The notes below the pieces were generated by a model, which did no database searches, had not been told where the DNA came from, and worked only from the letters and a program-made list of their open reading frames with translations. From a candidate division WOR-3 bacterium (GTDB lineage: Bacteria; Hydrothermota; UBA3072; B12-G15), in NCBI GenBank assembly GCA_965649055.1, contig CBFGJG010000003.1:22998-86997 (forward strand): DNA of 64,000 bases, written 5' to 3'. Positions 3,905 through 63,701 of the stretch are shown here, in pieces. Numbering within the stretch: position 1 is the first letter of the stretch; the number at the start of each line of letters is the position of its first letter. The position numbers were made by a program, and so were the translations under genes.

Positions 3905-4146
3905 TCTATCCCCAGTATTTTTTTTATTCTTGGTTCGAGGTAAACATTCTTATCAATTTTTTCCCTCAAAATCTGAATCAATAGTTTTTTTTTGAATGAA
4001 TCTGAAAGGTTCTTGTTTATAACAATGTATTTCTTCCTGTATATCCTGCATGCACCACCTGAAGATAGTATTCTATCAACATAGACTTTAAAACCCAGCT
4101 TCTCTGCTATATCAATTAAAAATTTAAGGTCTTCATTTTTTTTCAT
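3901..4146 (-). CDS. Small hypothetical protein
   Basis: 81-aa basic ORF translationally coupled at both ends: a 14-nt overlap with the phosphomannomutase gene and a 4-nt overlap with DUF362. Confidence 0.35.
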   Translation of the reverse strand: MKKNEDLKFLIDIAEKLGFKVYVDRILSSGGACRIYRKKYIVINKNLSDSFKKKLLIQILREKIDKNVYLEPRIKKILGIE

Positions 4147-5491
4147 TTATAAATCCCATTACTAAATCTCTTATCTCGTTAAGTCTTTTTTCATCCTTTG
4201 CCTCAAACCTTGCGACTATTACGGGTTGGGTGTTTGAAGCACGTACAAGTCCCCAACCATCACCAAAAAGAATCCTTGCGCCATCAATACCAATAATATC
4301 ATATTTCCCTTTGAAATGTTTAATTACGTCCTCCACAATCTTCCATTTTTTATCTTCGGTTGTATCTATTCTTATTTCAGGAGTTGTATAATAATAGGGG
4401 ATTTCTTTTATCATCGCGGATATATTTTTTTCAGAATTTGAAACAATATCATAAAGCCTTAATGAGGAAAATATAGCATCATCGTATCCATAGTAGTCAC
4501 CACCGAAGAATATATGCCCGCTCATTTCACCTGCTAATGGTGAATTCAATTCCTTCATCTTTGCTTTAATCAATGAATGTCCAGTCTTCCACATAAACGG
4601 TCTTCCACCTATTTTTTCTATGAATTCAGAAGCACCCTGCGAAGACTTAACATCAAATATTATGTAAGAATTGGGGTATTTCTTCAAAACATATTTAGAA
4701 AATATACAGAGAAGTTTGTCTCCCCAAACAATATTTCCTTTATCGTCGATAACACCTATCCTGTCCGCATCTCCGTCATATCCAATACCAAAATCAGCAT
4801 TATTTTCAAGAACCTTCTTTTTCAAAGATTGCATATATTCTGGGATTGTCGGGTCAGGAAGATGATTTGGAAAATCTCCATCAGGTTCGCAGAAAATACA
4901 TTCAAAATCAGCACCAATTGAATTGAATAACCTTGAAGCTATCTCACCAGCAGTTCCATTACCAGGATCTATAACTATCTTAAGTTTTTTATTTGGATAT
5001 GTGATTGAAAGTGTTTTCTCAACATAATCATCTTTAACATCTTTCTTTAGAATCTTACCTTTCCCTTTCATAAAATCATTCTTTAATATAATATTCTTTA
5101 TTTCCTGTATAGATTCTCCGAAAAGTGTCTCTTCTCCAATCATCATCTTTAAACCATTGTATTCCTTCGGATTGTGGCTTCCTGTTACCATAACACCGCC
5201 ATCAAAACCATAATGAAAAACTGTAAAATATAGAAGTGGTGTTGGACACATACCAATATCAATAACATCTATCCCTGTTGAAATGATTCCTTTGCAAAGT
5301 GCCTCTTTAATCCTTGGAGATGTCTTTCTTGCATCAAATCCAACTGCTACTTCATTCCCAATCCTTTTTCTTCTTAACATTGAACCGTATGCCTTACCTA
5401 TAAGTTCGACGATATCATCAGTTAATTCCTCATCTGCTATTCCTCTTATATCGTACATCCTGAAAATTTCTTCATTCATCATTACCTCCAT
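4133..5491 (-). CDS. Phosphomannomutase/phosphoglucomutase (alpha-D-phosphohexomutase family)
   Basis: N-terminal MYDIRGIADEELT, the phosphoserine loop VTGSHNPKEYNG, the metal-binding GYDGDADR-like motif (GYDGDADRIG) and the sugar-binding GEMSGH motif. 452 aa. Confidence 0.85.
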   Translation of the reverse strand: MEVMMNEEIFRMYDIRGIADEELTDDIVELIGKAYGSMLRRKRIGNEVAVGFDARKTSPRIKEALCKGIISTGIDVIDIGMCPTPLLYFTVFHYGFDGGVMVTGSHNPKEYNGLKMMIGEETLFGESIQEIKNIILKNDFMKGKGKILKKDVKDDYVEKTLSITYPNKKLKIVIDPGNGTAGEIASRLFNSIGADFECIFCEPDGDFPNHLPDPTIPEYMQSLKKKVLENNADFGIGYDGDADRIGVIDDKGNIVWGDKLLCIFSKYVLKKYPNSYIIFDVKSSQGASEFIEKIGGRPFMWKTGHSLIKAKMKELNSPLAGEMSGHIFFGGDYYGYDDAIFSSLRLYDIVSNSEKNISAMIKEIPYYYTTPEIRIDTTEDKKWKIVEDVIKHFKGKYDIIGIDGARILFGDGWGLVRASNTQPVIVARFEAKDEKRLNEIRDLVMGFINEKK

Positions 5492-5503: not shown

Positions 5504-6346
5504 TTAAGTTCCTTTTTTAATTTTAATCTTTAACCCTATAATATGTGTAGGCTCAAAATATGAACCCGTAATTGTATAATACAATGAAATTTGGGAAAAA
5601 TCAAGTCCAATTCCGAATGAAATTTTTTTCAATTGTGAATAACCGGCCCTTATTGAGATAATGTCTCTTATTGTTATTTCAGAACCAAATGAGAAAAAAT
5701 TCTTATAATCGTTTAAAATATAAGAGATCTCAGCGAAACCATTATAACCTTCAAATTTATAAGGTAGTGATGTTGCAATTATTGTAGTCTGCGGTATTTT
5801 GTCTACTGTCTTTCCAAACCATGATATCTCAGTGCCCATAATGTCTTTTATTATCATTGAAATCCTTAATTTTTTTTCAAAGGTTAAACCGATGTCGTAT
5901 CCAAATCCTGTTCCATGAAAATCAACTATTTCCTGCTCATAGTTCTTAATATTAAATCCTATATTCACTAATTTCATCTTCGTTGCCAAAGAGAATGTCA
6001 GAACCCTTTCATTAACGCTAAAATAATCGATAGTTTCAGGGATAATGGTGTCTTCAATATCAGGGTTTAGTGGCATTTCACCTGATGTAAAATAATTTAT
6101 ACCAAAGGCAAGATATAAGCCATAGGCATTAAATCCAGTAGTAAGATTATAAAGATGAAAATTTTGAATAAGGTTTGTCCAGTCAATATAAAGGGAAGGG
6201 CTCTTGACACATATATTTGCTGGATTCCACCATATTGATGATATATCTTCATATGTGAAATAACTTGAACAGGAAATTCCTCTTGCACCTGCACCGGGAA
6301 ATAGATAATCGAAAGGAATACTGAAACTCAATAAAATCAATATCAT
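5504..6346 (-). CDS. Outer-membrane beta-barrel protein, PorV/FadL-like (candidate T9SS cargo shuttle)
   Basis: N-terminal FPGAGARGISCSSYFTYEDISSIWWNPANI resembles the conserved PorV/LptO motif (G-A-R-A-x-G-M-G-G-A...D-x-S-A-x-x-W-N-P-A-G). The remainder shows the alternating hydrophobic pattern of beta-strands. It sits immediately downstream of T9SS-CTD cargo genes with a 4-bp overlap. Confidence 0.45.
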   Translation of the reverse strand: MILILLSFSIPFDYLFPGAGARGISCSSYFTYEDISSIWWNPANICVKSPSLYIDWTNLIQNFHLYNLTTGFNAYGLYLAFGINYFTSGEMPLNPDIEDTIIPETIDYFSVNERVLTFSLATKMKLVNIGFNIKNYEQEIVDFHGTGFGYDIGLTFEKKLRISMIIKDIMGTEISWFGKTVDKIPQTTIIATSLPYKFEGYNGFAEISYILNDYKNFFSFGSEITIRDIISIRAGYSQLKKISFGIGLDFSQISLYYTITGSYFEPTHIIGLKIKIKKGT

Positions 6347-9300
6347 CTTTTCAATACCGCCATTTTTCTTTTTTCCTTTGTTTCAAAAATCCCAAGTTTA
6401 GCCCTGACAACGTAAAGGTAAACCCCATTAGGAATATAATTTCCATTATCGTCTCTTAAATGCCACTCAATTATATTTTTCCCTTCTTTCAAATCGTAGA
6501 AAACTTTTTTACAAACGATATTACCGGAAGGTTGATAAATTTCGAGAGTAGCAGAATCAGGTTTTTTTGTCAATTCAACTAAAAACTTTGTTAAATCCCT
6601 TGCGGGGTTTGGATAGTTTGAAAGAAAAGTAATTAAAAATGGTGTTTGTATATTTATGAATATATCTTTTGAAATCATATTCCCGTGAACATCGTAAGCG
6701 AAAAACTTTGCATTGTAGAAACCATCATTTAGGGAACTTTCAAGATTAAGATTCATAATGTTTAAATCCCTTGTTTCGTTCACTTCCAATATTATCTCTT
6801 TCTGGTTTATCATAAAATAAGGTTTTCTTATCCATATATCTATTCCATTATCGTCCTCAGCAGTAAGGTTTATTTTTATATTTCCATCCTTAGAATACAA
6901 CGTATCTTTTAATATTTTCACAATTGGTTTTGTATTATCACTGGTAAAACCGTAAGTGTAAAAACCTGTATCCTTCACCCAGACGCTATCCCCGGAAAGA
7001 TTAATCCATTTTAATTTCTTCCTTATATATATGGAACCATTTGATGAATCCGGAAAGATTTTTAGGAAAAATGGCTTTTGAATTGTATCATAATATATTA
7101 TTTTAAAAACCTTATTGAAATTATCAAAACTTCCAGGTTTAAAATCTTCCTGTTTTAAAGGGGGTTCGTATTCATCTTCAAATACAAAAAAATATCCATC
7201 TTTTTTAAATGTTTCTGGTAATATAGTTATTTCCCAGAATCTATCACTTATGATGTTTGTATCTAAATGATTAATTTTATAGAAATTTTTCTTCTTTATA
7301 TAATAGATTACATTATTATTTTCGTTTAGTTCGTTAATCCAGTTATAACTATCAATAAAAATCTTGAAATTTATATCCTTAAAAGTATCATTAACGAATT
7401 CTTCGATAGGGATTAAGACTTCTTCTTTTACCAAAGGTTTTATATCTGATATTATGGTATCATATATCCAATAATAATCATCATCTTTAAATTTATATAT
7501 TGACAATACTGTTGAGTCCGCTTTTTTTTCACCTGAATTTATAACATTTAATCTTAGTAATAATGTTTTGTTATCACAAAATATTTCCGGTTCTGTAAGG
7601 AATTTTAAATCCGACCTTTTTATAATATATTCTGAAAATATCCTTGACCTGTTGAAGTTTAGAGAATCAAACAATTCAATTCTAAAGTTCAGATTTAAAC
7701 CTTCTTTTATAATCGGAATTCTGCAATAATATGTTCCTGAAGAATCATTCATAAAAATCTTATTATTTAATATTCCGTCGTAACCAAATACACAGAATAT
7801 TGAATCAGGTTGAATCTTCAACTTTGCTTTTATATTTATTGTATCATTTAAACATAAAATCTCAGGATAATAGATTATACTTTCAAAAATATCCTTTTTA
7901 AATACGTTATCTTCACCTGCGATTGAGTAAAGGTTATTTTTCAATAAAGAGATAATCCTTGTATTTTCGGATAACAATTCTATATAAAATGAAGTATCTT
8001 TTGAATACCCGGTTTTATTAAAGGAATATTCATAAATATTTAAAGAATCAATCACTTTAAAATGGAATCTTCCTGTCATACTGTTTTCACATCTGATATA
8101 TAATGTGTCATTTTTATAAAGGTTAGAAAATTTAAGTGTATCTTTCGCAATCTTCAGTTTAAATAAAGGGTCGCCTATTAAATGATAACAAATGGAGTTA
8201 TATGAATCCGGAAATAGAAATTTATAATAAAAAATAATATCTCCAAGTCTTCTCAGGTCTTTTCTGAAAATTCCGTTCAGTAAAAATTTATCTGTGTGAA
8301 TATTATCAGAGAAATAAGTGAGCCCTGATGGTGCAACAGAACCTATCATTCCAACCCCGGGGAACATTACAGAATATTCACTAACGGATCTCAATTGCGG
8401 GTCATCCATTATACCATTAACACAGGAGAAGGCAAGCATAAAGGTTAGTTTCCCATAGTTTGTCAGTCTTGGTATATCATATATCCTGAAGTATCTTCCA
8501 GCCCCCAGATCTTCTTCACCACCATGACCGTGAAAATTAAATATAGTTTGACCATAAGAAAGAGCCCTTATAACTTCCTCCCATACGCTTGTCCCTTCCC
8601 TTGAATAAACACGTGTAATATCATATCCTGAAGGTATAATACTTTTTATGATCTGCTCAGAGATTACATCTGAATTTTGTAGTGCGTAATCAGCACCAAA
8701 GAATAATCTGTTTTCTTTTGGTTCATCAGAATTTGAACCATTTATTATCTTATCGATGTATCCTGCCATCTCTGTTCTTGTAATTGCGGGAATCCTGCCT
8801 ACCACGATATCTGGAAACTCGTCATTTCCACATATTTTTGAATACTCAAAATCAGAAGAATAGTATCCACCCAGAACATTTTTCATAATAACAGGGACAA
8901 GGTCAGAATTGTTTTTGTAGATATTTTTTGGGTCGTAAGTTCCCTTTCCCATAATGATAAGGTAATAGGGAGGATTATCGAGTTCAAAACAGTATCTCAA
9001 GAAGTCTTTTATCGCAAAAGGTGATTTTTCACCATAATTGAAACAGTTATAAATTTCGTCTGTTGTAAATATACTAACAGATATTGAATCATAAGATTCA
9101 TAATAATTTTTATAATTCAACGCATAATCATAAAATATCGGATGGGTTATAACAACAGCATCAGAACCATTGAAAGAGTTCATTTTATCTTCAATATTGA
9201 AATATCTTATATCTTTAGGAATCCTTTCCGTCCCTGTTAAATATACAATATAATTGGCTTTTCCATTGGTTGTATCCGAGAAAGTAACTGAATAACATTC

Positions 9301-10476
9301 TTTATCCGTTTCGATAACCGGATTAACAATTTTATATCCGTCTATTCTCATTATATTTATTCTGTTTGACTGAAAATTATTAATTGTCACCTTAAAATTA
9401 CTCTTTTCGCTCTTAAACTTCAAAATTTTCCCGTCTGATATGAATTTCCTTTTATAAAAAATTCTCAAATCTTTAAGATATATGAAAGATTGTGATTTAA
9501 TATTTATCTTTTTAATCTTCACATTGGTTGTGCATTGAATCTCTTGAAACGATTGTCCTTGAATATTAAGATTTTTTATGAATAAATCATTAACATATAA
9601 GTTTATATTCTGACTCAATAAAGAATTGTTATATAATTTTATCCTGATTATCCCGGAGTTATCATACCAATTTATTGTATCAAATAAGAATGTAAAAAAA
9701 GTATCCTGTTCGTAAAACCAGCATCCGGAACTTCTTGAAAAGATTTTTTCCTTATCGATGCATATAGAATCTTGGAAGAAATTCAAAACTTCATCGGATT
9801 CTTCTGTATTAATATGGATATAATGTTTTCCTTCACCTATCTTTAGCCAGTAATAGTCTAAAGTATCGAAATCCGATTTGTAATCTTCAGCATAAAAAAT
9901 CAAATAATCATTATTATTGAATATATTATCTCCGTCAATATCGTATACATCAACAGGGACTGTTTTATCTTTATGTTTTAATGATATCTCACTTATTGGT
10001 GGTGAGAAGTTAATATTGTTTTTTAACAACATTCTGTGTGTTAATTTATAAATACCTGAAGAATCAACAGAGATTCTTATTCCATCTTTTAATTTTATAC
10101 TAACTGAATTTCTTCTATTATTGCTGGAATTAAGTTGGTTCAGGACGATTTCATCATAAAATCTATTCTGTTTTAAGCTTAAACAACCATTTTTTTTAAA
10201 ATTAAAGTTAATTAAAATAACATCGTAATTTTTTATTTTTGTTGTATCAATCTCAATAATTAAAACCTTTCTTTTCCTGAAATCAAATGTCCCAATTATC
10301 CTTAATAAATCATTGCTTAACTTTTTTTCTCCGTTAAATAATTCATAATTAAATCCATACTCATCGGGAATAGAAATAATAGTTCTGTTTGAGATATCAT
10401 TATTTATAAATATCAGTGAGATTGATTTATCTGAATAATCTATTAATTTGAAAACCGAAAAAATTAAGAAAATCAT
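6343..10476 (-). CDS. Giant secreted caspase-fold cysteine peptidase, gingipain (C25)-like, with T9SS C-terminal sorting domain
   Basis: 1377 aa. A His-Gly catalytic-type motif (FNFHGHGGEEDLGAG) lies upstream of an Ala-x-Cys motif (TFMLAFSCVNG), the spacing and order expected for clan CD/C25 peptidases. The C-terminus (GVYLYVVRAKLGIFETKEKRKMAVLKR) matches the T9SS CTD strand pattern shared by other proteins in this window. Confidence 0.55.
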   Translation of the reverse strand: MIFLIFSVFKLIDYSDKSISLIFINNDISNRTIISIPDEYGFNYELFNGEKKLSNDLLRIIGTFDFRKRKVLIIEIDTTKIKNYDVILINFNFKKNGCLSLKQNRFYDEIVLNQLNSSNNRRNSVSIKLKDGIRISVDSSGIYKLTHRMLLKNNINFSPPISEISLKHKDKTVPVDVYDIDGDNIFNNNDYLIFYAEDYKSDFDTLDYYWLKIGEGKHYIHINTEESDEVLNFFQDSICIDKEKIFSRSSGCWFYEQDTFFTFLFDTINWYDNSGIIRIKLYNNSLLSQNINLYVNDLFIKNLNIQGQSFQEIQCTTNVKIKKINIKSQSFIYLKDLRIFYKRKFISDGKILKFKSEKSNFKVTINNFQSNRINIMRIDGYKIVNPVIETDKECYSVTFSDTTNGKANYIVYLTGTERIPKDIRYFNIEDKMNSFNGSDAVVITHPIFYDYALNYKNYYESYDSISVSIFTTDEIYNCFNYGEKSPFAIKDFLRYCFELDNPPYYLIIMGKGTYDPKNIYKNNSDLVPVIMKNVLGGYYSSDFEYSKICGNDEFPDIVVGRIPAITRTEMAGYIDKIINGSNSDEPKENRLFFGADYALQNSDVISEQIIKSIIPSGYDITRVYSREGTSVWEEVIRALSYGQTIFNFHGHGGEEDLGAGRYFRIYDIPRLTNYGKLTFMLAFSCVNGIMDDPQLRSVSEYSVMFPGVGMIGSVAPSGLTYFSDNIHTDKFLLNGIFRKDLRRLGDIIFYYKFLFPDSYNSICYHLIGDPLFKLKIAKDTLKFSNLYKNDTLYIRCENSMTGRFHFKVIDSLNIYEYSFNKTGYSKDTSFYIELLSENTRIISLLKNNLYSIAGEDNVFKKDIFESIIYYPEILCLNDTINIKAKLKIQPDSIFCVFGYDGILNNKIFMNDSSGTYYCRIPIIKEGLNLNFRIELFDSLNFNRSRIFSEYIIKRSDLKFLTEPEIFCDNKTLLLRLNVINSGEKKADSTVLSIYKFKDDDYYWIYDTIISDIKPLVKEEVLIPIEEFVNDTFKDINFKIFIDSYNWINELNENNNVIYYIKKKNFYKINHLDTNIISDRFWEITILPETFKKDGYFFVFEDEYEPPLKQEDFKPGSFDNFNKVFKIIYYDTIQKPFFLKIFPDSSNGSIYIRKKLKWINLSGDSVWVKDTGFYTYGFTSDNTKPIVKILKDTLYSKDGNIKINLTAEDDNGIDIWIRKPYFMINQKEIILEVNETRDLNIMNLNLESSLNDGFYNAKFFAYDVHGNMISKDIFINIQTPFLITFLSNYPNPARDLTKFLVELTKKPDSATLEIYQPSGNIVCKKVFYDLKEGKNIIEWHLRDDNGNYIPNGVYLYVVRAKLGIFETKEKRKMAVLKR

Positions 10477-11792
10477 CTTTTAATATGGATTATTTTTCTT
10501 TTTTCAATTCCATCTTTTTTATTTAGAATTAGAATGTAAATTCCCTGTGGATAATTTACAAATTCAATATCAAGCCATCCATTTTGAATTTCTTCCTCTT
10601 TTATTTTTCTACCGTCAACACCTATAAGTGTATATTTTTTTGCATCAACCTGGATTTCTAATTTTCTTTCAACTATATGACTTTCTGAAACAAAAAATTT
10701 CTTTTTGCCGTTGTCGTAAAACTTGTAAAAAATCTTTTTATCGGGACTGCCCAAAATATATCCGTTCCAGAAAACAAAAATGTTCCCTTCAGAATCCTTT
10801 TTTATCAATGGATTTGAACAAAGATATGAAGATTCATTAAGTTTTATCGGTTCATTTATATTGTCATCAAAATAGAATATATCACCATTTTCTGACCAGA
10901 CGAAACTCCTGTATTCGCTAATATCAAGGTCGATTTCTGTAAGACTATTTGAAATATGTATTGTTTCTTTATCCTTCCAGGAATTTTCATATTCCCTATA
11001 AATAATGTGAATCTTACCGTTCCTTAATTCATTCCAGATCACTCCTATTTTACCGGAATGAAAATCAGAAACAGGGTTAAATGAATTTACCATTGTATCT
11101 GATATTATAATTGAAGAACCTTCATTAAAATTTTTACATTTGATAACTATTTTCCCATTCTTAACTTCTTCGAATATTAAAAAAGGTGAATTATTATATA
11201 ATGCTATGGAAGGGAAACCCGCATATATTTCAGAGTTAGAGACGATTAAATCGCTGGACCAGATACCTCTTTGTAAATACTTGTACAATATTTCTGATAG
11301 TCCATTTCTTGTGTCCTGCCAGACAATATGTATTACATTATTCCTTAAAAGAACTGATGGATTTATAGACCAATTTCCATCATTTTCGGTTACATTTTCG
11401 ATACCGCTGAAAATACCGCCAGAAATATTATGGTAATATTTTCTTAAAAAAATCTCGTTCTGGAAATTCATATGTTGATAGGATATCCTTCTATCATCCC
11501 AGATAATGTATATACAACTATCAGTAAAGAGAAGATTAGAATATCCTGCCCATAGAGAATAGACACTTCCAGCCCTTGATACATTCTTAAAGTAATCTAT
11601 GTTACAGTTTTTATTAACCCTTGCAAAGTAAACTTCAAGATAAGGGCTTGTATAACTTGAAAGAAAACTTATATACACATTACCGTTATTATCTGTATCG
11701 AGAGAATGAACAAATGATGGCGAGAGTATATTAACCTTATCACCTATATTTAATAATTTCTCTTGTGACCAGAAAGAAATAATCAGAATCAT
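10473..11792 (-). CDS. Secreted repeat (beta-propeller/BNR-like) protein with T9SS C-terminal sorting domain
   Basis: 439 aa with recurring S/D-x-N/E-G-x-I-x-V/I-W/F strand motifs (SENGDIFYF, DSEGNIFVFW, SGKIGVIW, NGKIHIIY). C-terminal GIYILILNKKDGIEKRKIIHIKR is CTD-like. 4-bp overlaps on both sides. Confidence 0.5.
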   Translation of the reverse strand: MILIISFWSQEKLLNIGDKVNILSPSFVHSLDTDNNGNVYISFLSSYTSPYLEVYFARVNKNCNIDYFKNVSRAGSVYSLWAGYSNLLFTDSCIYIIWDDRRISYQHMNFQNEIFLRKYYHNISGGIFSGIENVTENDGNWSINPSVLLRNNVIHIVWQDTRNGLSEILYKYLQRGIWSSDLIVSNSEIYAGFPSIALYNNSPFLIFEEVKNGKIVIKCKNFNEGSSIIISDTMVNSFNPVSDFHSGKIGVIWNELRNGKIHIIYREYENSWKDKETIHISNSLTEIDLDISEYRSFVWSENGDIFYFDDNINEPIKLNESSYLCSNPLIKKDSEGNIFVFWNGYILGSPDKKIFYKFYDNGKKKFFVSESHIVERKLEIQVDAKKYTLIGVDGRKIKEEEIQNGWLDIEFVNYPQGIYILILNKKDGIEKRKIIHIKR

Positions 11793-13048
11793 TTTAATCT
11801 AATTATCTTCTTCAAAATCCCGTTTTTTTTTAAAAAATAAACACCATTCTTAGAAATAGAATTTTTTCTACCTGTAATATCCAAAATTAAACTATCATTT
11901 TCAAAAAGCATGTTATTCCCTGAACCAACGAGATTCCCTTCTTTGTCTATCAACCTGTAAGATATTATATTACCATCAAACCTTATAATTTCGCTTTTTT
12001 TTACCTCCATAAGACATACAATTGTATCTTCTTTTGATCCTTCAAGAAGAATTTCTTTATCTATTGTAATCTTATCTTTAGAAACAATCTCTAAATAACC
12101 ATCTAAGTTCGAAATAATTTTTTTATTATCTATTATAAGGTTTATACCATTATTCTTATCAACGAACATTTTTCTTTGATTGAGAAACCATTTCCACATT
12201 ATGCAGAAGGAATTAAAATCATTATAGTCCATTAATCCGTCAGGTAGGCAATAAATATCCGGGAGCCTACCAGAATAAGGACCTGTTTCAAAATATGTAT
12301 CATTGTTTAGAAAAGCATTCCTGAATATTACAAAATCAAGAGAATTAACCTGGAGGTCAAGATCGAAATCACCTAAAGGAGAAATTATATAATTTACATA
12401 TATATCATCTAAAGGGCTTCCATCTTCAAAATTGTTCCAGTTCCCGTCTATTTTATTTCCAAAGATATCCTTTACTGAATCACCATTAAATTTAAATACG
12501 AGGTTGTCATTAGAACGTGGAATAGGATAGAGGTAAACATAGATAGTATCTTTTTTTATTTTTATCTCTTTCTTTGAATAAAAGATTGTATCCTGATAAT
12601 TGTAGGAGAAAATTTCAGTTCCACTATTAAAACTTGAAGAATCTATGTGAGAATTGAAGACAAATTTGAAAAGCCTTCCATCCGTTATTCCCTGGACAGG
12701 GGTTATGCTAACAAGTTGTGGTGGAGCAGGTGTGGGAACTTTTATAGTATCCTTAAAGATTACCCCGTTCGTTAGTTTTGAAAAAAAAGTATAGTAATAA
12801 TAGTATCCAGGAGAGAGTGAAACTGAATCAATAAACATATATGGTTTTAATGGCTCAAGGGGAATTCTTAGAAAACACCACCATTCATTTGGTGAGTTTG
12901 CAAATCTATCATATCTTCTTACGATAAACAATGATTCAATGGAACTTGAATCGGGGGATACAAATGTTATAAGGTTGAATGATTTGTATTTTGTTATTGA
13001 AAGATTATAGAGAAATGATATCTCAATAAATAACAATCGTTCCTCCAT
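11789..13048 (-). CDS. Secreted protein with dockerin-like Ca-binding repeat and T9SS CTD-like C-terminus
   Basis: 419 aa. GDFDLDLQVNSLDFVIFRNAFL fits the dockerin loop-helix pattern D-x-D-x-D-x-x-V-N-x-x-D-x3-L, and a partial second copy (DGLMDYNDFNSF) follows. The C-terminus NGVYFLKKNGILKKIIRLK is CTD-like. Confidence 0.4.
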   Translation of the reverse strand: MEERLLFIEISFLYNLSITKYKSFNLITFVSPDSSSIESLFIVRRYDRFANSPNEWWCFLRIPLEPLKPYMFIDSVSLSPGYYYYYTFFSKLTNGVIFKDTIKVPTPAPPQLVSITPVQGITDGRLFKFVFNSHIDSSSFNSGTEIFSYNYQDTIFYSKKEIKIKKDTIYVYLYPIPRSNDNLVFKFNGDSVKDIFGNKIDGNWNNFEDGSPLDDIYVNYIISPLGDFDLDLQVNSLDFVIFRNAFLNNDTYFETGPYSGRLPDIYCLPDGLMDYNDFNSFCIMWKWFLNQRKMFVDKNNGINLIIDNKKIISNLDGYLEIVSKDKITIDKEILLEGSKEDTIVCLMEVKKSEIIRFDGNIISYRLIDKEGNLVGSGNNMLFENDSLILDITGRKNSISKNGVYFLKKNGILKKIIRLK

Positions 13049-13742
13049 TTAGTGTATCTACAGGTATTTCAAATCCAAGTGAATCAAATATCTTTCCTTC
13101 CTTTATTTTAAATTCATATTTTCCTGTTTCATTTGAAGAAAATTTGAAATTCCCGATTATGAAATCCTGCTCAGGAAATCCATTCATGTTTGTCCTATAA
13201 ATCTCAAGTGAACATTGATATTCTTTGACTAAAACAATCGGTAGTGAATTCCCTGAAAAAACAGAGCTGTCTATCCTGTATTCGATTAAATTAATCTCTT
13301 TATCCCATGCCAATTTAACATATTCAAAACTATGTGTTTTTAGATTTTCACCTTTTAAGAGGATGTTAATATCCTGATATAAGCGCAATGAGTCAAAAAT
13401 AGGGGAGATTGAGAACCCATTTTTTAAACCATCGATACAGAAGATAATTTCAGGATAATTTTCTTCTTTTTCACCAAGGATATTTTTACCCCTTACCCAG
13501 AAATTATGCCACCCATCGTCGAGAATAAATGATACCGATTCAGAGATTGTCCAGTCTGATAATTTACCGTCAATTGAATACTGATAATATACCGTGCCAT
13601 CACCTTTCCAGACAATCTTTACAATGTTTGTGTTTATAATAGAACAATTTTCAGGACCTTTAATTATATTTGTCTTTGGAGATATTAGTTTCTCATTATA
13701 ACATCCTATCAGGAAAATGATTAGAATCAATGGTTTCTTCAT
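13023..13742 (-). CDS. Lipoprotein, unknown function
   Basis: N-terminal MKKPLILIIFLIGCYNE has a lipobox (L-I-G-C). 239 aa. 4-bp overlap with the upstream PfkB kinase gene. Confidence 0.5.
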   Translation of the reverse strand: MKKPLILIIFLIGCYNEKLISPKTNIIKGPENCSIINTNIVKIVWKGDGTVYYQYSIDGKLSDWTISESVSFILDDGWHNFWVRGKNILGEKEENYPEIIFCIDGLKNGFSISPIFDSLRLYQDINILLKGENLKTHSFEYVKLAWDKEINLIEYRIDSSVFSGNSLPIVLVKEYQCSLEIYRTNMNGFPEQDFIIGNFKFSSNETGKYEFKIKEGKIFDSLGFEIPVDTLNGGTIVIY

Positions 13743-14605
13743 ATTCCGGAAAGATAATTATATTTTTCCTTTATAGAATTTATTTTATCAAGGATACTGT
13801 CTCCGTTTATTCTTTCCAGAATCTCAACTGTATTTTTTACTGATAAGAAAGGATCTTTTGTATTCAGGAAGAAAGATATAAAAATTCCTGAAAATATATC
13901 ACCTGCACCAATAATATGTTTTTTCTCAGGATTTTTTGATACATAATGTTCAAGTCTTTTCTTATTGTATATATATGCACCTTTTTCAGCATCCGAAACT
14001 ATTATTATCTTATCATCAGGAAATATCTCAATACCTTCAGGGAAAAAACTGTGAACCAGAGCATAATATTCCCTCATATTCATCTGTATTATATCAAAAT
14101 TTTCTATGAGGATACGAGATTCTTCTTTTTCAAGCATTTTCTGGAATCTCTCACCATTTTCCTTTATACCTAATGTAAGGCTATGCACATCAAGCATTTT
14201 AAATGGTATTTTCAATTCTTTGATCCTATTCAGTGTTTCATATTTGAATTCCCAGCCCATCACAGGATTAATGAGAATAAGTTCAATATCTTCATCCATG
14301 TTTTCTAATAAACTTATATCTATTTCAGGTGAATATGGTGTTATGAATTCATACCTTTCATTATTGTAAACGTGAAGGACATTCCTGTTTGTCATTTCAA
14401 TCTCTATAACATATTTCAAGTCAATATTAGGTGTCATTAAGCTCATGAATTCTTTTTTTATATCCTTTCCGAGATAGGTTACAGGAAAAATCTTGATCCT
14501 CCTGTCAAGTGCTAAAGATAAAAGATTATATGTTATTCCACCAAGAGATTCAATATTCCCAATTTTGTCATAACTTATACTTCCTGCAATACCGACATTT
14601 CTCAT
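13739..14605 (-). CDS. PfkB-family carbohydrate kinase (first gene of operon)
   Basis: C-terminal HIIGAGDIFSGIF matches the PfkB GAGD anion-hole/ATP motif. The N-terminal Gly-rich sugar-binding region is VGIAGSISYDKIG. 288 aa. Confidence 0.55.
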   Translation of the reverse strand: MRNVGIAGSISYDKIGNIESLGGITYNLLSLALDRRIKIFPVTYLGKDIKKEFMSLMTPNIDLKYVIEIEMTNRNVLHVYNNERYEFITPYSPEIDISLLENMDEDIELILINPVMGWEFKYETLNRIKELKIPFKMLDVHSLTLGIKENGERFQKMLEKEESRILIENFDIIQMNMREYYALVHSFFPEGIEIFPDDKIIIVSDAEKGAYIYNKKRLEHYVSKNPEKKHIIGAGDIFSGIFISFFLNTKDPFLSVKNTVEILERINGDSILDKINSIKEKYNYLSGI

Positions 14606-14685: not shown

Positions 14686-15066
14686 ATGATTATTTTATTT
14701 ATAGCACAGTTAGGAATGATACAGTCTAATATAAGTATAAACATCCAGGTTTGGGGTGAGGTTAGGAATCCAGGTATATTCAATGTCCCACCAAACATTA
14801 ATGTTATTGAGGCAATATCATTTGCAGGTGGTCCACTTAATACATCTGATCTTTCTAATGTAAAGATAGTTAGTTTGAACGGGAACATAAAGTTCATAAA
14901 TATTTCTTCTTATCTAAAAGGAGGAAAGGTCGACATTCCAATGATCTCACCCGGAGATATAGTTATCGTTCCAAGATCTGCCCTTTCAAATCTCGTCGAG
15001 TTTGTTAGATTTATGAGTATCGTAATAGGTGCTGCAGGAATTATCTTTTCCATAGTGGGGAGATAA
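14686..15066 (+). CDS. Polysaccharide export protein fragment (Wza-like Poly_export/PES domain only)
   Basis: GEVRNPGIFNVPPNINVIEAISFAGGPLNTSDLSNVKIVSL...ISPGDIVIVP matches the Wza N-terminal polysaccharide-export domain. At 126 aa it lacks the SLBB repeats and outer-membrane helix of full-length Wza. Confidence 0.6.
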   Translation: MIILFIAQLGMIQSNISINIQVWGEVRNPGIFNVPPNINVIEAISFAGGPLNTSDLSNVKIVSLNGNIKFINISSYLKGGKVDIPMISPGDIVIVPRSALSNLVEFVRFMSIVIGAAGIIFSIVGR

Positions 15067-17165
15067 TGTCTCCTGAAACTTATCAGTATGACCTTTTGAA
15101 GTTTATAAAAATATTGAAGAGGAGGCAATGGGTAATATATAATTCAATTATTTTACTTGTTTTTCTTACTATCATATATATATTTGTAGCACCAAAATAC
15201 TATGAAGCAAGTTCCAAAATATTGATTACTTCACGAAAATATACACTTGGTCCTGAAATTATGTATAAAGATGAGGAAAAAGAGATAGAAAACGAACTTG
15301 AAATACTTAATAGTGCTAATTTTATTTTAAAGGTTTTCGAAAATCTAAAGATGAAGAAAAAACTTCCGCTGTTCTCGTCTAATAACCCGTACTATGAATT
15401 CAGCAGAAATATTAGCATCCTGCCCATAGGAAGGAGTAATACAATTAGATTAAGTTATGTATCAAAAAATCCTGAAGAAGCAATGATTGTTGCAAATACA
15501 CTTGCTGAAACTGCAGTTGAATTTTCACTTGACTTTGAAAAGGCAGAAATAATACAGGTTATGAAATTTCTTGAGACACAGATTCCTTTAGCACAGGAAA
15601 GATTAAAGGATATTGAAAAAAAACTTGAAGAGTATAAAAGTTCTACCGGAATATTATCTGTTTCTGAATACGTAAATGTGCTCTCAAACGAAATTTCAAG
15701 TTTTGACCATATTTATAATGAAACAATACTTGAATATGCCAGTAAAGAAACCGCATTGAAGTTTTACAAGGAAAGATTGAATGACATAAAGAAAAACCTA
15801 TCTGATGACTTGAGTGGAATAGTGAACGCATCTATAAAAAACATTAGAACAGAACTATTCAATCTTGAAAATGAACTTTTGACATTTGAACTTAAAGGTG
15901 TATCCGAGGATAATCCCAGGAAGATGTTATTGAAGAAAAACATTGAAGATTTAAAGAAGAAGTTGAGGGAAGAGGTTCTGAAGGTTGCCGGTGATAGTTT
16001 ATTTGTTAATGATCCTTTATCTTTAACCTTCGATTTATCACTTAAAATAGTAGAGACAGAGATAGATTTTGAGATACTCAAATCAAAGAAACAGGTTCTT
16101 GAGAACCTTAAAGAGAATTATGACAAAAAATGGCGTTCTTTCCCATATCAGGAAACCAAACTTGTCAGTCTAATAAGGGAGTATAAGATTGCAGAAGATG
16201 TTGTAAAACTTTTGACTGAGAAATATGAAGAATTCAGGATTGAAGAGGCAAAGAAAATAGGGAATGTAAGGATAATTGAATTTGCAACAATCCCAATTTT
16301 TCCTGTAAGGCCACAGAAAAAATTAAGTCTGTTACTGGGATTCTTTGGAGGTGTATTTATCGGTATCATTGGTGTTATAATCCTTGAAGTATTTGCAAAC
16401 AAAATAGTCGATGAAGATGACTTAAAGGAATTTACTCATATTCCTGTTATTGGTATTATCCCTGAAGTTAAACCCAAAGAAATGGGTGGAGGGCTTACGA
16501 GGTATCTTGTTACAAATTTTGATAACAATAATAATATCGTCGAATCCTACAGAATATTAAAAACAAATCTTAGTTTTATGAATGTTGATAAGAAATTAAA
16601 GACTTTTCTTATAACAAGTTCTTTACCGGAAGAAGGTAAGACAACTGTATGTGTTAATCTTGCGTTAACAACAGCTCTTGCAGGTTATAAAACATTGATT
16701 ATTGATTTTGATCTGAGAAAACCTGCTCTCCATAAGGTTTTTGGTACCGATAATTCAAAGGGACTGACAGAGGTGGTTTTTGACATTAAAAAAACTGATG
16801 GAATTATGAACAAAATAAATGATAATCTCTATTTAATCACATCGGGTAGAATTCCACCGGATGCATCTGAGTTGATAAATTCGGATAGTATGAAAGACTT
16901 AATTGAGAAGGTTTCAAAAGGGTTTGATTATGTTTTCTTTGATTCCACTCCATTTATTGTTCCTGAAACAAGGCTTATAGGTATGCTGAGTGACTCTATT
17001 ATACTTGTTTTAAGAAGCAACTTTGAAAGCCCCGATGTTCTAAACAGAACAATTAATGTTATTCATTCTATCAACAAGAAGATTATAGGAATAGTTATAA
17101 CACGATTACTAAGAAAGCATCATCATTATTATTCTTCTTATTATTATTACAAGGAGGAAAAATGA
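15066..17165 (+). CDS. Wzc-type polysaccharide co-polymerase / bacterial tyrosine autokinase (BY-kinase)
   Basis: N-terminal Wzz-like region with a transmembrane segment. Walker A (SLPEEGKTT), A' (LIIDFDLRKP) and B (YVFFDSTP) motifs are present. The C-terminal tail HHHYYSSYYYYKEEK provides the Tyr cluster used for autophosphorylation. 699 aa, with an ATGA overlap to the next gene. Confidence 0.8.
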   Translation: MSPETYQYDLLKFIKILKRRQWVIYNSIILLVFLTIIYIFVAPKYYEASSKILITSRKYTLGPEIMYKDEEKEIENELEILNSANFILKVFENLKMKKKLPLFSSNNPYYEFSRNISILPIGRSNTIRLSYVSKNPEEAMIVANTLAETAVEFSLDFEKAEIIQVMKFLETQIPLAQERLKDIEKKLEEYKSSTGILSVSEYVNVLSNEISSFDHIYNETILEYASKETALKFYKERLNDIKKNLSDDLSGIVNASIKNIRTELFNLENELLTFELKGVSEDNPRKMLLKKNIEDLKKKLREEVLKVAGDSLFVNDPLSLTFDLSLKIVETEIDFEILKSKKQVLENLKENYDKKWRSFPYQETKLVSLIREYKIAEDVVKLLTEKYEEFRIEEAKKIGNVRIIEFATIPIFPVRPQKKLSLLLGFFGGVFIGIIGVIILEVFANKIVDEDDLKEFTHIPVIGIIPEVKPKEMGGGLTRYLVTNFDNNNNIVESYRILKTNLSFMNVDKKLKTFLITSSLPEEGKTTVCVNLALTTALAGYKTLIIDFDLRKPALHKVFGTDNSKGLTEVVFDIKKTDGIMNKINDNLYLITSGRIPPDASELINSDSMKDLIEKVSKGFDYVFFDSTPFIVPETRLIGMLSDSIILVLRSNFESPDVLNRTINVIHSINKKIIGIVITRLLRKHHHYYSSYYYYKEEK

Positions 17166-18256
17166 TAAGAAATGGTTTAATCCTAGGTATTTTAGGTTTT
17201 GTTGTAGTTTTTGGTGTTTTATTTGTTACTGATAAATTTACAAAATCAGATTCACAGAATATTGTCGAAATGATCGCGAACGATTATATTGCTCGTGCAA
17301 AATTACTTTCACTAATAATCAGAGAATCGATCGAGATGGAAGACGAGATAAGTTCAACTGCTATCTTGAATTTGGTTAAGTCAAATTTCAGTGATGTTTT
17401 AAACCTGACTATTATAGGAAAAGATGGAACAGTACTTGCTGATCTTGACTCCACAAAACTTCTAAGCAAATTTAAAGGGACGATGGTAGGGAGTAAGGAA
17501 TTTCTAAAATTATCAGAAAATAGTAGATATTATCTTGGTGTTCCTATTAAATCCGGGAATAACAAAATAGGTGAGATACATATCACCCTTGACTCCAAAA
17601 AATATTCTGCACAAAAACCTTTATTTGACATTAATAAACTGATATACTCAGGAGCAGCTTTATTAATTTTCTTTATAGTTGGTCTTTTTATTGGAAAGGG
17701 AGGAAAGAAAACAGAGATAGTAGAATCACCTGATACATCAGGATTACAGAGGGATGTTGAGACATTAAAAGAGGTTATCTCCAATCTTAAGAAAGAAGAA
17801 GAAGATACTATAAAAATGATAGAAGATAAAAAGAATGAGATTGAGAGGATTGAAAAGGAGATAAAAAATAAGAAAAAAGAACTTGAGGCAATAAATAGTG
17901 AGTTCGGGAACATTGCAGAGAAAAGGAAAGAACTCGAAAATCTAAAGACGGAGTTTGCTTCAATTGAAGTGAAGCTTTCTGATAAAAAGGCTGAACTTGA
18001 AGAGCTGGATAGAAAATTAAAAGAGAGAAAAGAAATGGTTCCTGCTGAAAATGAAGAAGAAGCTTTGATAGGTGGACTTATTGATAACGATATTGATTCA
18101 AGGATAGAAGAAAAGAAGAAACAAGAAGTTGAATTGACACAGAGGATAGTTGCAAAAAGAAGGGAAGAAATCACTATATCAGCAAGGATTGAGGCTAAAA
18201 AGAAAGAATTAATAGAACTTGAGAAAAAAATAGATACTTTAAAAAAACAGGCATAA
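17162..18256 (+). CDS. Membrane-anchored coiled-coil protein
   Basis: Two transmembrane segments (LILGILGFVVVFGVLFV and AALLIFFIVGLFIG) flank a ~150-aa domain. A long Lys/Glu-rich heptad-like region follows (KKNEIERIEKEIKNKKKELEAINSE...). Translationally coupled to wzc. Confidence 0.5.
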   Translation: MIRNGLILGILGFVVVFGVLFVTDKFTKSDSQNIVEMIANDYIARAKLLSLIIRESIEMEDEISSTAILNLVKSNFSDVLNLTIIGKDGTVLADLDSTKLLSKFKGTMVGSKEFLKLSENSRYYLGVPIKSGNNKIGEIHITLDSKKYSAQKPLFDINKLIYSGAALLIFFIVGLFIGKGGKKTEIVESPDTSGLQRDVETLKEVISNLKKEEEDTIKMIEDKKNEIERIEKEIKNKKKELEAINSEFGNIAEKRKELENLKTEFASIEVKLSDKKAELEELDRKLKERKEMVPAENEEEALIGGLIDNDIDSRIEEKKKQEVELTQRIVAKRREEITISARIEAKKKELIELEKKIDTLKKQA

Positions 18257-18261
18257 AAATA

Positions 18262-18289
18262 TTGACAATTTTTCTTATTAAAATATTAT
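18262..18289 (+). promoter_or_regulatory. Sigma-70 promoter TTGACA-16-TATTAT driving tRNA-Leu
   Basis: TTGACA at 18262-18267 and TATTAT at 18284-18289. The tRNA 5' end (18298) lies ~8 nt downstream of the -10. Confidence 0.6.
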
Positions 18290-18297
18290 ATAAGAAG

Positions 18298-18378
18298 GCC
18301 GGGGTGGCGGAATTGGCAGACGCGCACGTTTGAGGGGCGTGTGGGATTCCCGTGGGGGTTCAAATCCCCCCTCCGGCA
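18298..18378 (+). tRNA. tRNA-Leu (anticodon GAG)
   Basis: Hand-folded cloverleaf. Acceptor stem GCCGGGG/CTCCGGC (one G-U pair) and U8. Anticodon stem CACGU/GCGUG with loop UUGAGGG (U33, GAG, G37). Long variable arm GGG-AUU-CCC, type II as in Leu. T-arm GGGGG-UUCAAAU-CCCCC, discriminator A, no encoded CCA. Confidence 0.85.
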
Positions 18379-19376
18379 TTTTTCAAGAATTCAGTTGCTT
18401 TCTCAGGTGGCATAGGGTTTATATAGAATCCTGTTCCCCATTCGAATCCTGCAACCTTAGTTAATTTAGGAATTATTTCAATATGCCAGTGATAATCATA
18501 TTCTAATGTAGGCCATTTGCCTGACATATGTATCGGGGCAGTATGGATTATATAATTATATGATGGGTCATTTAAAACTTTATAATAATTCAGGAAGACA
18601 AAGGAAAAGATACTCACAAGAGAATTTATTTCCTCATCCCTTATATCTTCGAAGAATGCAACATGCCTTTTTGGTAAAATCCATAACTCAAACGGAAATC
18701 TTGATGCGAATGGTGCAAAACATATGAAATGTTCATTTTCCATCACAATCCTTGTTTTTTCTTCAAGCTCTTTTTTTATCATTTCACAGAAGATACAGCT
18801 TCTGTTCTCGAGATAAAAATTCCTACTGCTATATAGCTCTTCCGAGACCCTTTTTGGAACAATAGGTGTTGCAATTAACTGGGAGTGAGAATGTGAAAGT
18901 GATGCACCTGCTTCAAAACCATAATTTTTAAAGATTAATATATACCTTAATCTTGAATCATTCTTTAAATCATTATACCTTACTTTATATGTCTCTATAA
19001 TTAGTTTAATCTCATCATTATCCATATTATGAAGAAATTTCGTATGCAAAGGCGTCTCTATGATTACTTCGTGCCTTCCTATGCCTGTTATACTTCTGTA
19101 TATTCCGTCTTTTTGCGATTTGATTTCACCATCTGAAGATAATGCAGGGAATTTATTTGGAACGACCCTTATTTTCCAGTTGGGTGTATCTTTCCCTGAG
19201 CCATTCCTTATTGCATAAACTTCAGGTGGTGTCTTATTCTCATTACCTTCGCAGAAAGGACAAAAACCTTCAACCTTGTATTGTTTTTCAACAACAAAAT
19301 CATCAGGCCTTTTAGCCCTTTCAGTTGCAATAATAACCCATCTACCACTTATAGGGTCTTTTCTTAAATCAGGCAT
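18360..19376 (-). CDS. galT: Galactose-1-phosphate uridylyltransferase (GalT family)
   Basis: Zn-binding CPFCEGNE near the N-terminus and the active-site H-x-H-x-Q motif (SHSHSQ). 338 aa. The last 6 codons plus the stop overlap the 3' end of tRNA-Leu on the opposite strand. Confidence 0.75.
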   Translation of the reverse strand: MPDLRKDPISGRWVIIATERAKRPDDFVVEKQYKVEGFCPFCEGNENKTPPEVYAIRNGSGKDTPNWKIRVVPNKFPALSSDGEIKSQKDGIYRSITGIGRHEVIIETPLHTKFLHNMDNDEIKLIIETYKVRYNDLKNDSRLRYILIFKNYGFEAGASLSHSHSQLIATPIVPKRVSEELYSSRNFYLENRSCIFCEMIKKELEEKTRIVMENEHFICFAPFASRFPFELWILPKRHVAFFEDIRDEEINSLVSIFSFVFLNYYKVLNDPSYNYIIHTAPIHMSGKWPTLEYDYHWHIEIIPKLTKVAGFEWGTGFYINPMPPEKATEFLKNAGGGI

Positions 19377-20544
19377 TTTTAAACCATCCTTTCGCTACAA
19401 CAATTCTATTTTTCTCTGTTATGTCAAGACCGTATTTCTTCCAATCTGAACATATATCTTTTTCATTTATATAATTGTCTTTGTCTACAATAGTATTTAT
19501 TAATCTCACTCCTTCACCAATTACACATCTCTCGAATATAATACTATTCTCAACATAGGCATTTTTTTCAATTTTAACAAGGGGTGAGATTATACTGTTT
19601 ATCACTTTTGCACCGTTAATTTCAGCGCCATTCGAGATATAAGAATTTACAACCTCACTACCTTTTAATATCTGTGCTGGTGGAAGAGGAGGAAAGTATG
19701 TCCTTATAGGGAACTCAGGGTCTTTAAGATTAATGGGTTTTGTGCCTTCATTAAGAAAATCATTGTTTGTTTCAAAGTAAGAGTCAAGTGTTCCTATATC
19801 TTTCCAGTAACCATCAAAGACATATGCATAGACTTTATAACCTTCGTTAATCATCTTTGGTATAACATCTTTACCAAAGTCGTGCGTGCTGTAACTATTC
19901 CTTGCGTCTTCTATAAGAATCTTCACAAGGGTCTCTGTCTTTGCTATATAAATACCTGCATTAACAAGAGAGAACTTTTCGTCTTTCTTATATGGAGGTG
20001 GATTTGATGGCTTTTCTATAAAACCGAGCACCCTGTTTTCCCTGTTAATATCAACGGTTCCGAATCTTGATGATTCAACCCTTGGATAAAGTAATGCTAC
20101 AAGTGTAAAATCAGCATCCTTTTTCATATGTTGTTCTAACAACGGCTGGTAATTCATCTTGTATATATGGTCTCCAGAAAGTATAAGTAGGTGCTCAGGT
20201 CTTTCCATCTGCAATGTGTATATATTTTGATAAACCGCATCTGCAGTCCCTTCATACCATCTTTCTCCATATCTTTGTTGTGCAGGTAATGGATAGAGGT
20301 ATCCATCAACATCGTATTTAAATAAATCCCATCCTTGTCTTATATGTCTGTCAAGTGAAAGAGAAAGATACTGGGTTAATAATACAATCTTTCTTAACCC
20401 AGAATTCACAGTGTTTGATAAAACAAAATCAATAATCCTATAGACACCCATAAAAGGAACTGCAGGTTTCGCCCTATTTTTAGTCAGAGGATAAAGCCGA
20501 ACACCTTTACCACCTGCAAGGATAAATGTGAGAATGTTTTTCAT
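19369..20544 (-). CDS. glgC: Glucose-1-phosphate adenylyltransferase (ADP-glucose pyrophosphorylase)
   Basis: N-terminal ILAGGKGVRLYPLTKNRAKPAVPFMGVYRIIDFVLSNTVNSG is the classic GlgC signature, and the C-terminal left-handed beta-helix region is present. 391 aa. Confidence 0.85.
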   Translation of the reverse strand: MKNILTFILAGGKGVRLYPLTKNRAKPAVPFMGVYRIIDFVLSNTVNSGLRKIVLLTQYLSLSLDRHIRQGWDLFKYDVDGYLYPLPAQQRYGERWYEGTADAVYQNIYTLQMERPEHLLILSGDHIYKMNYQPLLEQHMKKDADFTLVALLYPRVESSRFGTVDINRENRVLGFIEKPSNPPPYKKDEKFSLVNAGIYIAKTETLVKILIEDARNSYSTHDFGKDVIPKMINEGYKVYAYVFDGYWKDIGTLDSYFETNNDFLNEGTKPINLKDPEFPIRTYFPPLPPAQILKGSEVVNSYISNGAEINGAKVINSIISPLVKIEKNAYVENSIIFERCVIGEGVRLINTIVDKDNYINEKDICSDWKKYGLDITEKNRIVVAKGWFKNA

Positions 20545-26312: not shown

Positions 26313-26314
26313 CT

Positions 26315-27381: not shown

Positions 27382-27386
27382 GAGGG

Positions 27387-33284: not shown

Positions 33285-33365
33285 AGATTTATTTTTATTA
33301 ATATGTTGAAAATCAATAATGGATAATCGGGAACAAAAATTTTTTATAAATAATAGGAGGTAAAT

Positions 33366-35301: not shown

Positions 35302-35306
35302 TTAAA

Positions 35307-35765: not shown

Positions 35766-35767
35766 AT

Positions 35768-63209: not shown

Positions 63210-63701
63210 TCACCTCACTATTACAATCTTTCCTCTTTCTTCCTTCCAGTCTGATTTCAAGATATAGAAGTATACACCCGATATACCTGGATTGAATTCT
63301 AAACTGTATCTCTCTGAATTTATCTTCCCTTTCATCATCTTTCTAACTACCCTGCCAAATATATCATATATCACAAGTTCTACATTTCCTTCCTTTGGTA
63401 TCCCAACCTTGAATATCACTCTTCCCTTACCAAAATTACTTGTTAATCTAAACTCAAATACATCAGGTATATCTTTAATTCCTGTTATCGTGAATGTCTT
63501 CGTTTCTGATAGCCTGTCATTACCTGCTGAATCTATACCAATCACATAATATTCTATATTCATCGTCCCTTCTGTCTGTAAAGGTATTACACCTCTATAT
63601 GTGTTCCCTGATACATATTCCATTGTATCCTCATACCATTCCTTTGTATAATTCACCTGATACCTCAATATACCATAACTTATACCATTTATATCTGTCA
63701 T
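63210..63701 (-). CDS. Secreted protein with T9SS C-terminal sorting domain (N-terminus uncertain)
   Basis: C-terminal GVYFYILKSDWKEERGKIVIVR is CTD-like. The first ATG is at 63701, but the reading frame stays open and hydrophobic upstream to 63863 without an ATG/GTG/TTG, so the true start and signal peptide are unresolved. Confidence 0.45.
   Translation of the reverse strand: MTDINGISYGILRYQVNYTKEWYEDTMEYVSGNTYRGVIPLQTEGTMNIEYYVIGIDSAGNDRLSETKTFTITGIKDIPDVFEFRLTSNFGKGRVIFKVGIPKEGNVELVIYDIFGRVVRKMMKGKINSERYSLEFNPGISGVYFYILKSDWKEERGKIVIVR

Follow-up and report, generated by a model that had tools for sequence, protein, structure and literature searches.

A divergent PorU-like protein encoded beside a PorV-family gene in a probably WOR-3-like bacterium

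Introduction

In Porphyromonas gingivalis, PorU is a surface-exposed peptidase with a Cys/His active site (active-site mutant C690A) that is itself exported through the T9SS (type IX secretion system), keeps its C-terminal domain (CTD) uncleaved and is held by PorV. PorV brings CTD-bearing substrates to the PorU/V/Q/Z attachment complex and PorU cuts the CTD, after which the new C-terminus is transferred to anionic lipopolysaccharide (A-LPS) or the protein is released (PMC5562754, PMC10202324, PMC11285876). Here we describe a PorU-like protein of 1377 residues encoded in a 64-kb stretch of contig CBFGJG010000003.1; this whole stretch is referred to below as the window. An original prediction, made from the letters of the window, had taken the protein for a gingipain-like peptidase that could be a major surface protease or adhesin of the organism.

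The window protein shares its overall plan with P. gingivalis PorU (PG0026; crystal structure 6ZA2), in that N-terminal beta domains, a C25 domain with its His and Cys, immunoglobulin (Ig)-like domains and a CTD follow one another in the same order, and a PorV-family gene adjoins, as expected for a protein held at the surface by PorV (PMC5562754). The two differ in that their identity is only ~12-15% in structural alignments, the window protein is ~220 residues longer (1377 compared with 1158) and has additional beta domains separating the catalytic domain from the CTD, its host lies outside Bacteroidota, the NCBIfam cut-off is not reached, and the PorV partner falls ~70 residues short of the usual length. 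Compared with the gingipains RgpB and Kgp, which belong to MEROPS family C25 and are T9SS cargo in P. gingivalis, the window protein carries PorU-type beta domains of ~300 residues before the catalytic domain, lies in a porV context and matches PorU as its family-wide profile. Full-length homology and a downstream PorV-like gene are shared with PorU-like proteins from metagenome-assembled genomes (MAGs) of KSB1, Calditrichota, Ignavibacteria, Marinimicrobia and Cloacimonadota, although identity to these is ~25% and the window clade has only two to three known members, with upstream partners of its own. A further described pair, the PorU2/PorV2 'putative type IX sorting system' (NF052324/NF052325), is matched weakly by the window pair, far below the cut-offs.

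Results

The protein aligns with the PorU family along nearly its whole length

The gene is an uninterrupted minus-strand open reading frame (ORF) of 1377 codons, with its ATG at position 10476 and its stop at 6343, as read from the ORF list and its translation; the plus-strand reading of the same interval was rejected, its frame being full of stops. Because the G+C content of the window is ~30%, a frame open over 4.1 kb goes far beyond what chance would give. The positions of the gene, its domains and the other features of the window are collected in Table 1.

The best NCBIfam model was NF033707, 'T9SS sortase PorU' (E 6.6e-72), which aligned residues 133-786 with profile positions 8-744, the alignment beginning ~300 residues ahead of the catalytic domain. 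All 21 homologues found also matched this model, with a best E value of 0. An independent PorU profile drew on 30 full-length PorU-like proteins from other phyla whose genes are each followed by one for a PorV-like protein, and excluded the window clade; it aligned residues 119-1376 as a single stretch (474 bits, E 9e-144). In a phmmer search of the PDB the best entry was PorU 6ZA2 (E 3e-8), and its matching segments were collinear with the query at the N-terminus (query residue 133 at chain position 40, a segment that alone is not significant), in the catalytic domain and in the C-terminal domain, where residues 1248-1357 aligned to the C-terminal part of 6ZA2. We conclude that the gene is probably the PorU orthologue of a deep-branching, AT-rich and probably WOR-3-like bacterium.

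A C25 catalytic centre with all family-invariant residues

That the protein is a clan CD peptidase of the C25 family, as first proposed, was borne out by the Pfam hidden Markov model: PF01364 (Peptidase_C25) matched at E 9.6e-60 and 203 bits, against a cut-off of 23, over profile positions 2-374 of 374. The two motifs from which the prediction started are present where it placed them, the His-Gly motif NFHGHGGEEDLG at residues 647-658 and the Cys motif AFSCVNG at residues 682-688. In the phmmer alignment to RgpB (1CVR/4IEF; residues counted by hand) His651 falls on H211 and Cys685 on C244, which upholds their proposed role as the catalytic dyad; their spacing is 34 residues rather than the ~40 first estimated. 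Two histidines occur in NFHGHGGEEDLG, of which H651 is conserved among relatives and H649 is variable. Among 82 collected PorU-like ORFs the His651 and Cys685 columns were invariant in every one, R561 was likewise invariant, and D542, G650 and D769 were nearly so. The protein is thus a member of family C25 (clan CD), with a caspase-like alpha/beta fold and a His/Cys dyad in the RgpB register. In the same phmmer comparison D603 falls on the column of RgpB D163, the acidic residue of the S1 pocket, in a place where the alignment is gapped and residues were counted by hand. Since D, E and N all occur in this column among PorU-like proteins, it is uninformative for telling PorU from gingipain.

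At 25% identity to anything beyond its own small clade the protein is very divergent, and it could in principle be a degenerate or non-catalytic remnant acting as a structural surface protein only. Against this, all residues invariant in the 21-sequence family alignment are kept (D542, G560, R561, G650, H651, C685, E700, G745 and D769), the reading frame is unbroken, and three to four samples share the same length. Since no family-invariant residue has been lost, we find an inactive remnant scarcely credible.

Predicted structure and domain order

An AlphaFold2 (AF2) model of residues 101-900, built from a 30-sequence alignment, had a mean predicted local distance difference test (pLDDT) score of 79.9 and a predicted template modelling (pTM) score of 0.78, and was confident for residues 128-780. 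It consists of an all-beta N-terminal region (pLDDT >85) followed by an alpha/beta catalytic domain; G141 and Y143 in the N-terminal domains are invariant within the PorU-like family. In a Foldseek search of the PDB with this model PorU 6ZA2 ranked first (E 1e-28 over ~900 alignment columns), and the gingipains RgpB and Kgp ranked after it (E ~1e-17 to 1e-16, best 9e-18). Among solved structures 6ZA2 alone covers the additional domains too, although their relative orientation differs. In these models the catalytic domain alone is equally gingipain-like and PorU-like, and the structure is therefore strong confirmation of C25 that speaks for PorU only through coverage.

The second half of the protein, modelled as residues 781-1377, was also all-beta and mostly of low confidence (pLDDT 62.8); within it only the CTD is reliable, the last ~100 residues having pLDDT >95. 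Its best Foldseek match was again PorU 6ZA2 (E 5e-9), with generic Ig-array proteins next. The CTD matched two profiles, one of PorU CTDs taken from other phyla (E 5e-15) and one of 104 unrelated cargo-type CTDs (domain E 1.2e-15), and Pfam placed FlgD_ig at residues 1297-1360; judged from its sequence it is a type A-like CTD. The long N- and C-terminal extensions and the T9SS CTD of the original prediction were accordingly confirmed, the flanks as all-beta regions in the models and the CTD by profiles.

A gingipain-like cargo protein is a separate member of the family

The similarity of the catalytic domain to gingipains leaves room for a different reading, in which the protein is itself T9SS cargo, a gingipain-like surface cysteine protease. 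We regard this as unlikely. Collinearity with the PorU family extends over the full length, including the ~300 N-terminal residues that mature gingipains lack, and conservation of the PorU-PorV gene pair spans phyla. Searches of Pfam at E values up to 1 found neither the gingipain propeptide (Propeptide_C25, PF08126) nor any haemagglutinin or cleaved-adhesin domain in the protein; the Pfam matches outside the catalytic domain were to FlgD_ig and CARDB and, far below its cut-off, to Big_3_4. PF08126 is present in some distant members of the PorU-like family.

The sister genome L001 offers a direct comparison. At 16005-20615 on its minus strand lies the gene for a gingipain-like C25 protein of 1536 aa, which has CarboxypepD_reg and MAM-like domains as well as a genuine type A CTD that passes TIGR04183 (29.3 bits against a cut-off of 23). 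This cargo-type protein behaves otherwise on the profiles that the window protein matches along its length: the independent PorU profile aligned its catalytic part (95.5 bits) and a weak N-terminal stretch (108.6 bits in total), and NF033707 gave 75 bits over profile positions 352-676 only. Both kinds of C25 protein are therefore present in the lineage, the window protein being of the PorU kind. The L001 gene sits just past the conserved block of genes described below, at a place where the window carries other genes.

Taken with the PorV-family neighbour, the collinearity from residue ~119 to the C-terminus means that a gingipain-type 'major surface protease or adhesin' is not the best reading of the gene. 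Most likely the PorU-like protein is an expected part of the T9SS machine, and not a gingipain-type protease or adhesin.

The PorV-family neighbour and the case against a PorU assignment

The PorV-family barrel gene follows porU directly, its start codon overlapping the porU stop codon in the sequence ATGA, and the same overlap occurs at the upstream junction, where the stop of the 439-aa gene lies over the porU start. Through these overlaps porU is translationally coupled on both sides, to the 439-aa gene ahead of it and to the PorV-family gene behind it. A profile made from 35 PorV-like proteins encoded next to PorU-like genes in other phyla matched the 280-aa product at E 4e-25 and 81 bits, over positions 38-337 of 338.

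Several observations nevertheless weigh against the assignment. The NF033707 score, 242.6 bits, falls far short of the curated equivalog cut-off of 420. The neighbour likewise remains below the cut-off of 90 for NF033709 (PorV/PorQ family; 63.1 bits, E 3.2e-17), and the PorV-like barrel is short in the window lineage, at 276-284 aa compared with 325-426 (median 354) elsewhere. None of the T9SS core components SprA/Sov, PorK/L/M/N and PorZ was recognised among the scanned ORFs of the window. Finally, the N-terminus of the PorU-like protein (MIFLIFSVFK...) is hydrophobic and is without a basic n-region.

Very short hydrophobic N-termini with no basic n-region are a feature of the products of three successive genes, all predicted to be exported: the PorV-family barrel (MILILLSF...), the PorU-like protein (MIFLIFSVF...) and the 439-aa protein (MILIISFW...). 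None of the three ORFs can be extended upstream, and it follows that this lineage either has unusually short signal peptides or exports its proteins differently.

The sub-threshold scores of both canonical models and the lack of recognised core genes in the window would also suit a separate sorting system of PorU2/PorV2 type, paralogous to PorU/PorV and either restricted in its substrates or working without the canonical T9SS core. The PorU2 model NF052324 did match the PorU-like protein (E 1.4e-33) and the PorV2 model NF052325 its neighbour (E 4e-10). However, these matches scored 116 and 39 bits, compared with 243 and 63 for the PorU and PorV family, and missed their respective cut-offs (450 and 325) by a still wider margin; the PorU2 match was moreover confined to residues 300-721. 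Because the PorU2/PorV2 models score so much lower, we give such a system very little chance, and we retain the assignment to PorU and the PorV family.

A small clade in a lineage outside Bacteroidota

In a collection of 5.8 billion proteins the PorU-like protein had two close relatives only, at 64% and 56% identity, all others being at ~25% or less. Other samples contain two to three orthologues that match it in length and are 56-64% identical, and the gene order of the window block is identical in L001 (64% identity) and in L002 and L082 (56%). A metagenome scan with the PorU-like protein as sole query gave no match; the same kind of scan with a 3-sequence alignment gave one further locus, with the same gene order. 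When the family alignment was used for a profile search of the protein database, few further sequences came in, none of them a named PorU. A contig scan with a 6-sequence alignment gave at least 80 loci, of which 79 distant ones were analysed; the window's own genome was not among the matches listed. Among the matches listed, the distant relatives (~25% identity) came from KSB1, Calditrichota, Ignavibacteria, Marinimicrobia, Cloacimonadota and Bacteroidota MAGs, and a full-length PorV-like gene lay directly downstream of the PorU-like gene in ~35 of the 79 distant loci.

The LeuS protein of the window shares 69-70% identity with a cluster in which a candidate division WOR-3 bacterium occurs, and 55-60% with further sequences from WOR-3, Cloacimonadota and Zixibacteria. 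Since this single marker is nearest to candidate division WOR-3, which is the phylum Caldifarciminota in the NCBI listing, the host is placed outside Bacteroidota. The claim of a context outside Bacteroidota thus stands as far as the host is concerned (LeuS, 69% to WOR-3), but that context is less unusual than was implied, because T9SS has been described as a feature of the Fibrobacterota-Chlorobiota-Bacteroidota (FCB) superphylum (PMC11205867). In the literature searched we found no paper linking WOR-3/Caldifarciminota with T9SS or gingipains.

Operon partners

The porU gene belongs to a minus-strand block that encodes, in order, the PfkB-like kinase, the lipoprotein, the 419-aa protein, the 439-aa protein, the PorU-like protein, the 280-aa barrel, the phosphogluco/phosphomannomutase (PGM/PMM) and a DUF362 ferredoxin protein. 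The best minus-strand promoter-like site lies at 14639-14612; in promoter and terminator scans the site counts were no higher than the shuffled expectation. The arrangement of Wza-like/Wzc-like genes and porV-PGM/PMM is kept in L001, L002 and L082.

Immediately upstream of porU, the 439-aa protein belongs to a very large family of BNR/sialidase-like propeller proteins, with at least 1394 cluster representatives that have repeated matches and of which many carry T9SS tails. Ten relatives were scanned: six had BNR_2/BNR_4 matches, four of these six also FlgD_ig/Por_Secre_tail, and the remaining four had no match. The tail of the 439-aa protein matched TIGR04183 at E 3.8e-4 (20.4 bits, cut-off 23) and a local cargo-CTD profile at E 1.7e-4, and the protein is probably a T9SS substrate. 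PorZ of P. gingivalis is a propeller protein with a CTD; no sequence similarity between PorZ and the single-propeller 439-aa protein was detected.

The 419-aa protein had no Pfam or NCBIfam match at E <=0.01, and its hints, to the RgpB Ig and CTD construct 5AG9 (E 0.25) and to dockerin (E 0.011), are not significant. A profile of PorU CTDs detected neither its tail nor that of the 439-aa protein, and its candidacy as a CTD protein was dropped because the PorU-CTD and cargo-CTD profiles both missed it. The 239-aa protein, a probable lipoprotein by its lipobox-like motif, had no family match in Pfam or NCBIfam. Sequence searches of the PDB with the PorV-like, 439-aa and 419-aa proteins returned nothing significant. 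Local profiles of the three upstream genes, for the lipoprotein, the 419-aa protein and the 439-aa protein, found no counterpart beside PorU in the 79 distant loci among the matches listed.

Other features of the window

A second barrel of the PorV/PorQ family, 297 aa long, scored 49 bits against NF033709 (cut-off 90) and matched PorQ at E 6.9e-5, below its cut-off, and the independent PorV profile at E 9e-7. It lies between genes for subunits of a 2-oxoacid:ferredoxin oxidoreductase and accA, with no PorZ-like gene adjoining. The 163-aa protein near the end of the window matched the local cargo-CTD profile at E 1.3e-15 and is likely a small T9SS substrate. At 56301-57392 on the minus strand a PETase/dienelactone-hydrolase-like alpha/beta hydrolase of 363 aa, which may be a secreted esterase, weakly resembles a CTD over residues 310-354 (local profile, E 2e-4).

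Elsewhere, the plus-strand genes at 32886-39825 form a type IV pilus minor-pilin-like cluster, preceded by a DUF4388 protein, that includes a 132-aa protein carrying a methylation motif at its N-terminus, a 1218-aa protein weakly matching the PilC/PilY1 tip adhesin and several genes of no assigned function. The region 46461-52790 has the lowest G+C of the window (0.24) and holds two DUF6798 membrane paralogues (564 and 571 aa, minus strand) on either side of a PMT_2-type glycosyltransferase (648 aa). A plus-strand central-metabolism block at 24295-30411, with a G+C of 0.35-0.37 above that of the rest of the window, encodes succinyl-CoA ligase beta and alpha, Fe-S type fumarate hydratase alpha and beta, and 2-oxoacid:ferredoxin oxidoreductase subunits.

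Table 1 Positions of the PorU-like gene, its parts and the surrounding features in the window
Feature	Position	Strand	Basis
PorU-like gene, 1377 aa	6343..10476, including stop codon	-	ORF list; NF033707; independent PorU-family profile
N-terminal beta-sandwich domains, residues 133-440, not in mature gingipains	9157..10080	-	NF033707, AF2, Foldseek
Peptidase_C25 catalytic domain, residues 441-774	8155..9156	-	Pfam
Codon of catalytic His651 (CAT)	8524..8526	-	RgpB H211 alignment, codon checked
Codon of catalytic Cys685 (TGT)	8422..8424	-	RgpB C244 alignment, codon checked
Beta-rich (Ig-like) domain chain, residues 775-1283	6628..8154	-	Pfam CARDB, AF2, Foldseek
CARDB-like domain, residues 962-1056	7309-7593	-	Pfam CARDB, E 3.9e-5
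C-terminal T9SS CTD (predicted), residues 1284-1376	6349..6627	-	CTD profiles, pLDDT, phmmer
PorV-family outer-membrane barrel, 280 aa	5504..6346	-	NF033709, independent PorV profile
PGM/PMM, after porV	4133-5491	-	Pfam/NCBIfam
BNR/sialidase-like beta-propeller repeat protein, 439 aa, weak CTD-like tail, upstream gene	10473..11792	-	TIGR04183, relatives
Lineage-specific protein, 419 aa	11789..13048	-	No Pfam/NCBIfam match
Putative lipoprotein, 239 aa (MKKPLILIIFLIGC...)	13023..13742	-	Lipobox-like LIGC, read by eye
Weak PfkB-like sugar kinase, 288 aa, first of co-directional block	13739..14605	-	Pfam PfkB, E 2.6e-5, 24.2 bits, cut-off 25.8
Wza-like SLBB and Wzc-like chain-length/tyrosine-kinase proteins, divergent from porU block	14686-17165	+	Pfam/NCBIfam
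Second PorV/PorQ-family barrel, 297 aa	30408..31301	+	NF033709, E 6.4e-13
163-aa protein with type A T9SS sorting domain in C-terminal half	63210..63701	-	TIGR04183, 28.7 bits, cut-off 23

Discussion

The new element of this locus is a very divergent PorU-like member in a poorly sampled phylum. By analogy with P. gingivalis PorU, the protein would be exported by the T9SS, keep its own CTD and be held at the cell surface by the PorV-family barrel. Cargo would be delivered by PorV and the PorU-like protein would remove the cargo CTD, with Cys685, by homology, as the nucleophile forming an acyl-enzyme intermediate and His651 as the general base. The cargo would then be released, or transferred to an amine carried by a glycolipid or polysaccharide of the cell surface. 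The PGM/PMM and the Wza-like and Wzc-like neighbours raise the possibility of a polysaccharide as the putative acceptor.

A more far-reaching proposal is that PorU and the short PorV, together with the 239-aa lipoprotein, the 419-aa protein and the BNR protein (a possible stand-in for PorZ), form a minimal or alternative attachment complex that couples secreted proteins to a capsular polysaccharide or exopolysaccharide instead of A-LPS. We consider this distinctly improbable; were it true, the polysaccharide would be made and exported by the products of the flanking PGM/PMM and Wza/Wzc-like genes.

For annotation, 'PorU-like T9SS sortase' fits the gene and 'gingipain' or 'virulence protease' does not, and the curated cut-offs at present miss both the PorU-like protein and its PorV partner. 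The finding leaves the picture of how the T9SS works unchanged, and T9SS outside Bacteroidota is already accepted. A sequence this divergent that retains all family-invariant residues helps to define what is essential in PorU, and the locus is otherwise of modest interest unless its lineage-specific operon partners prove to form an unusual attachment complex.

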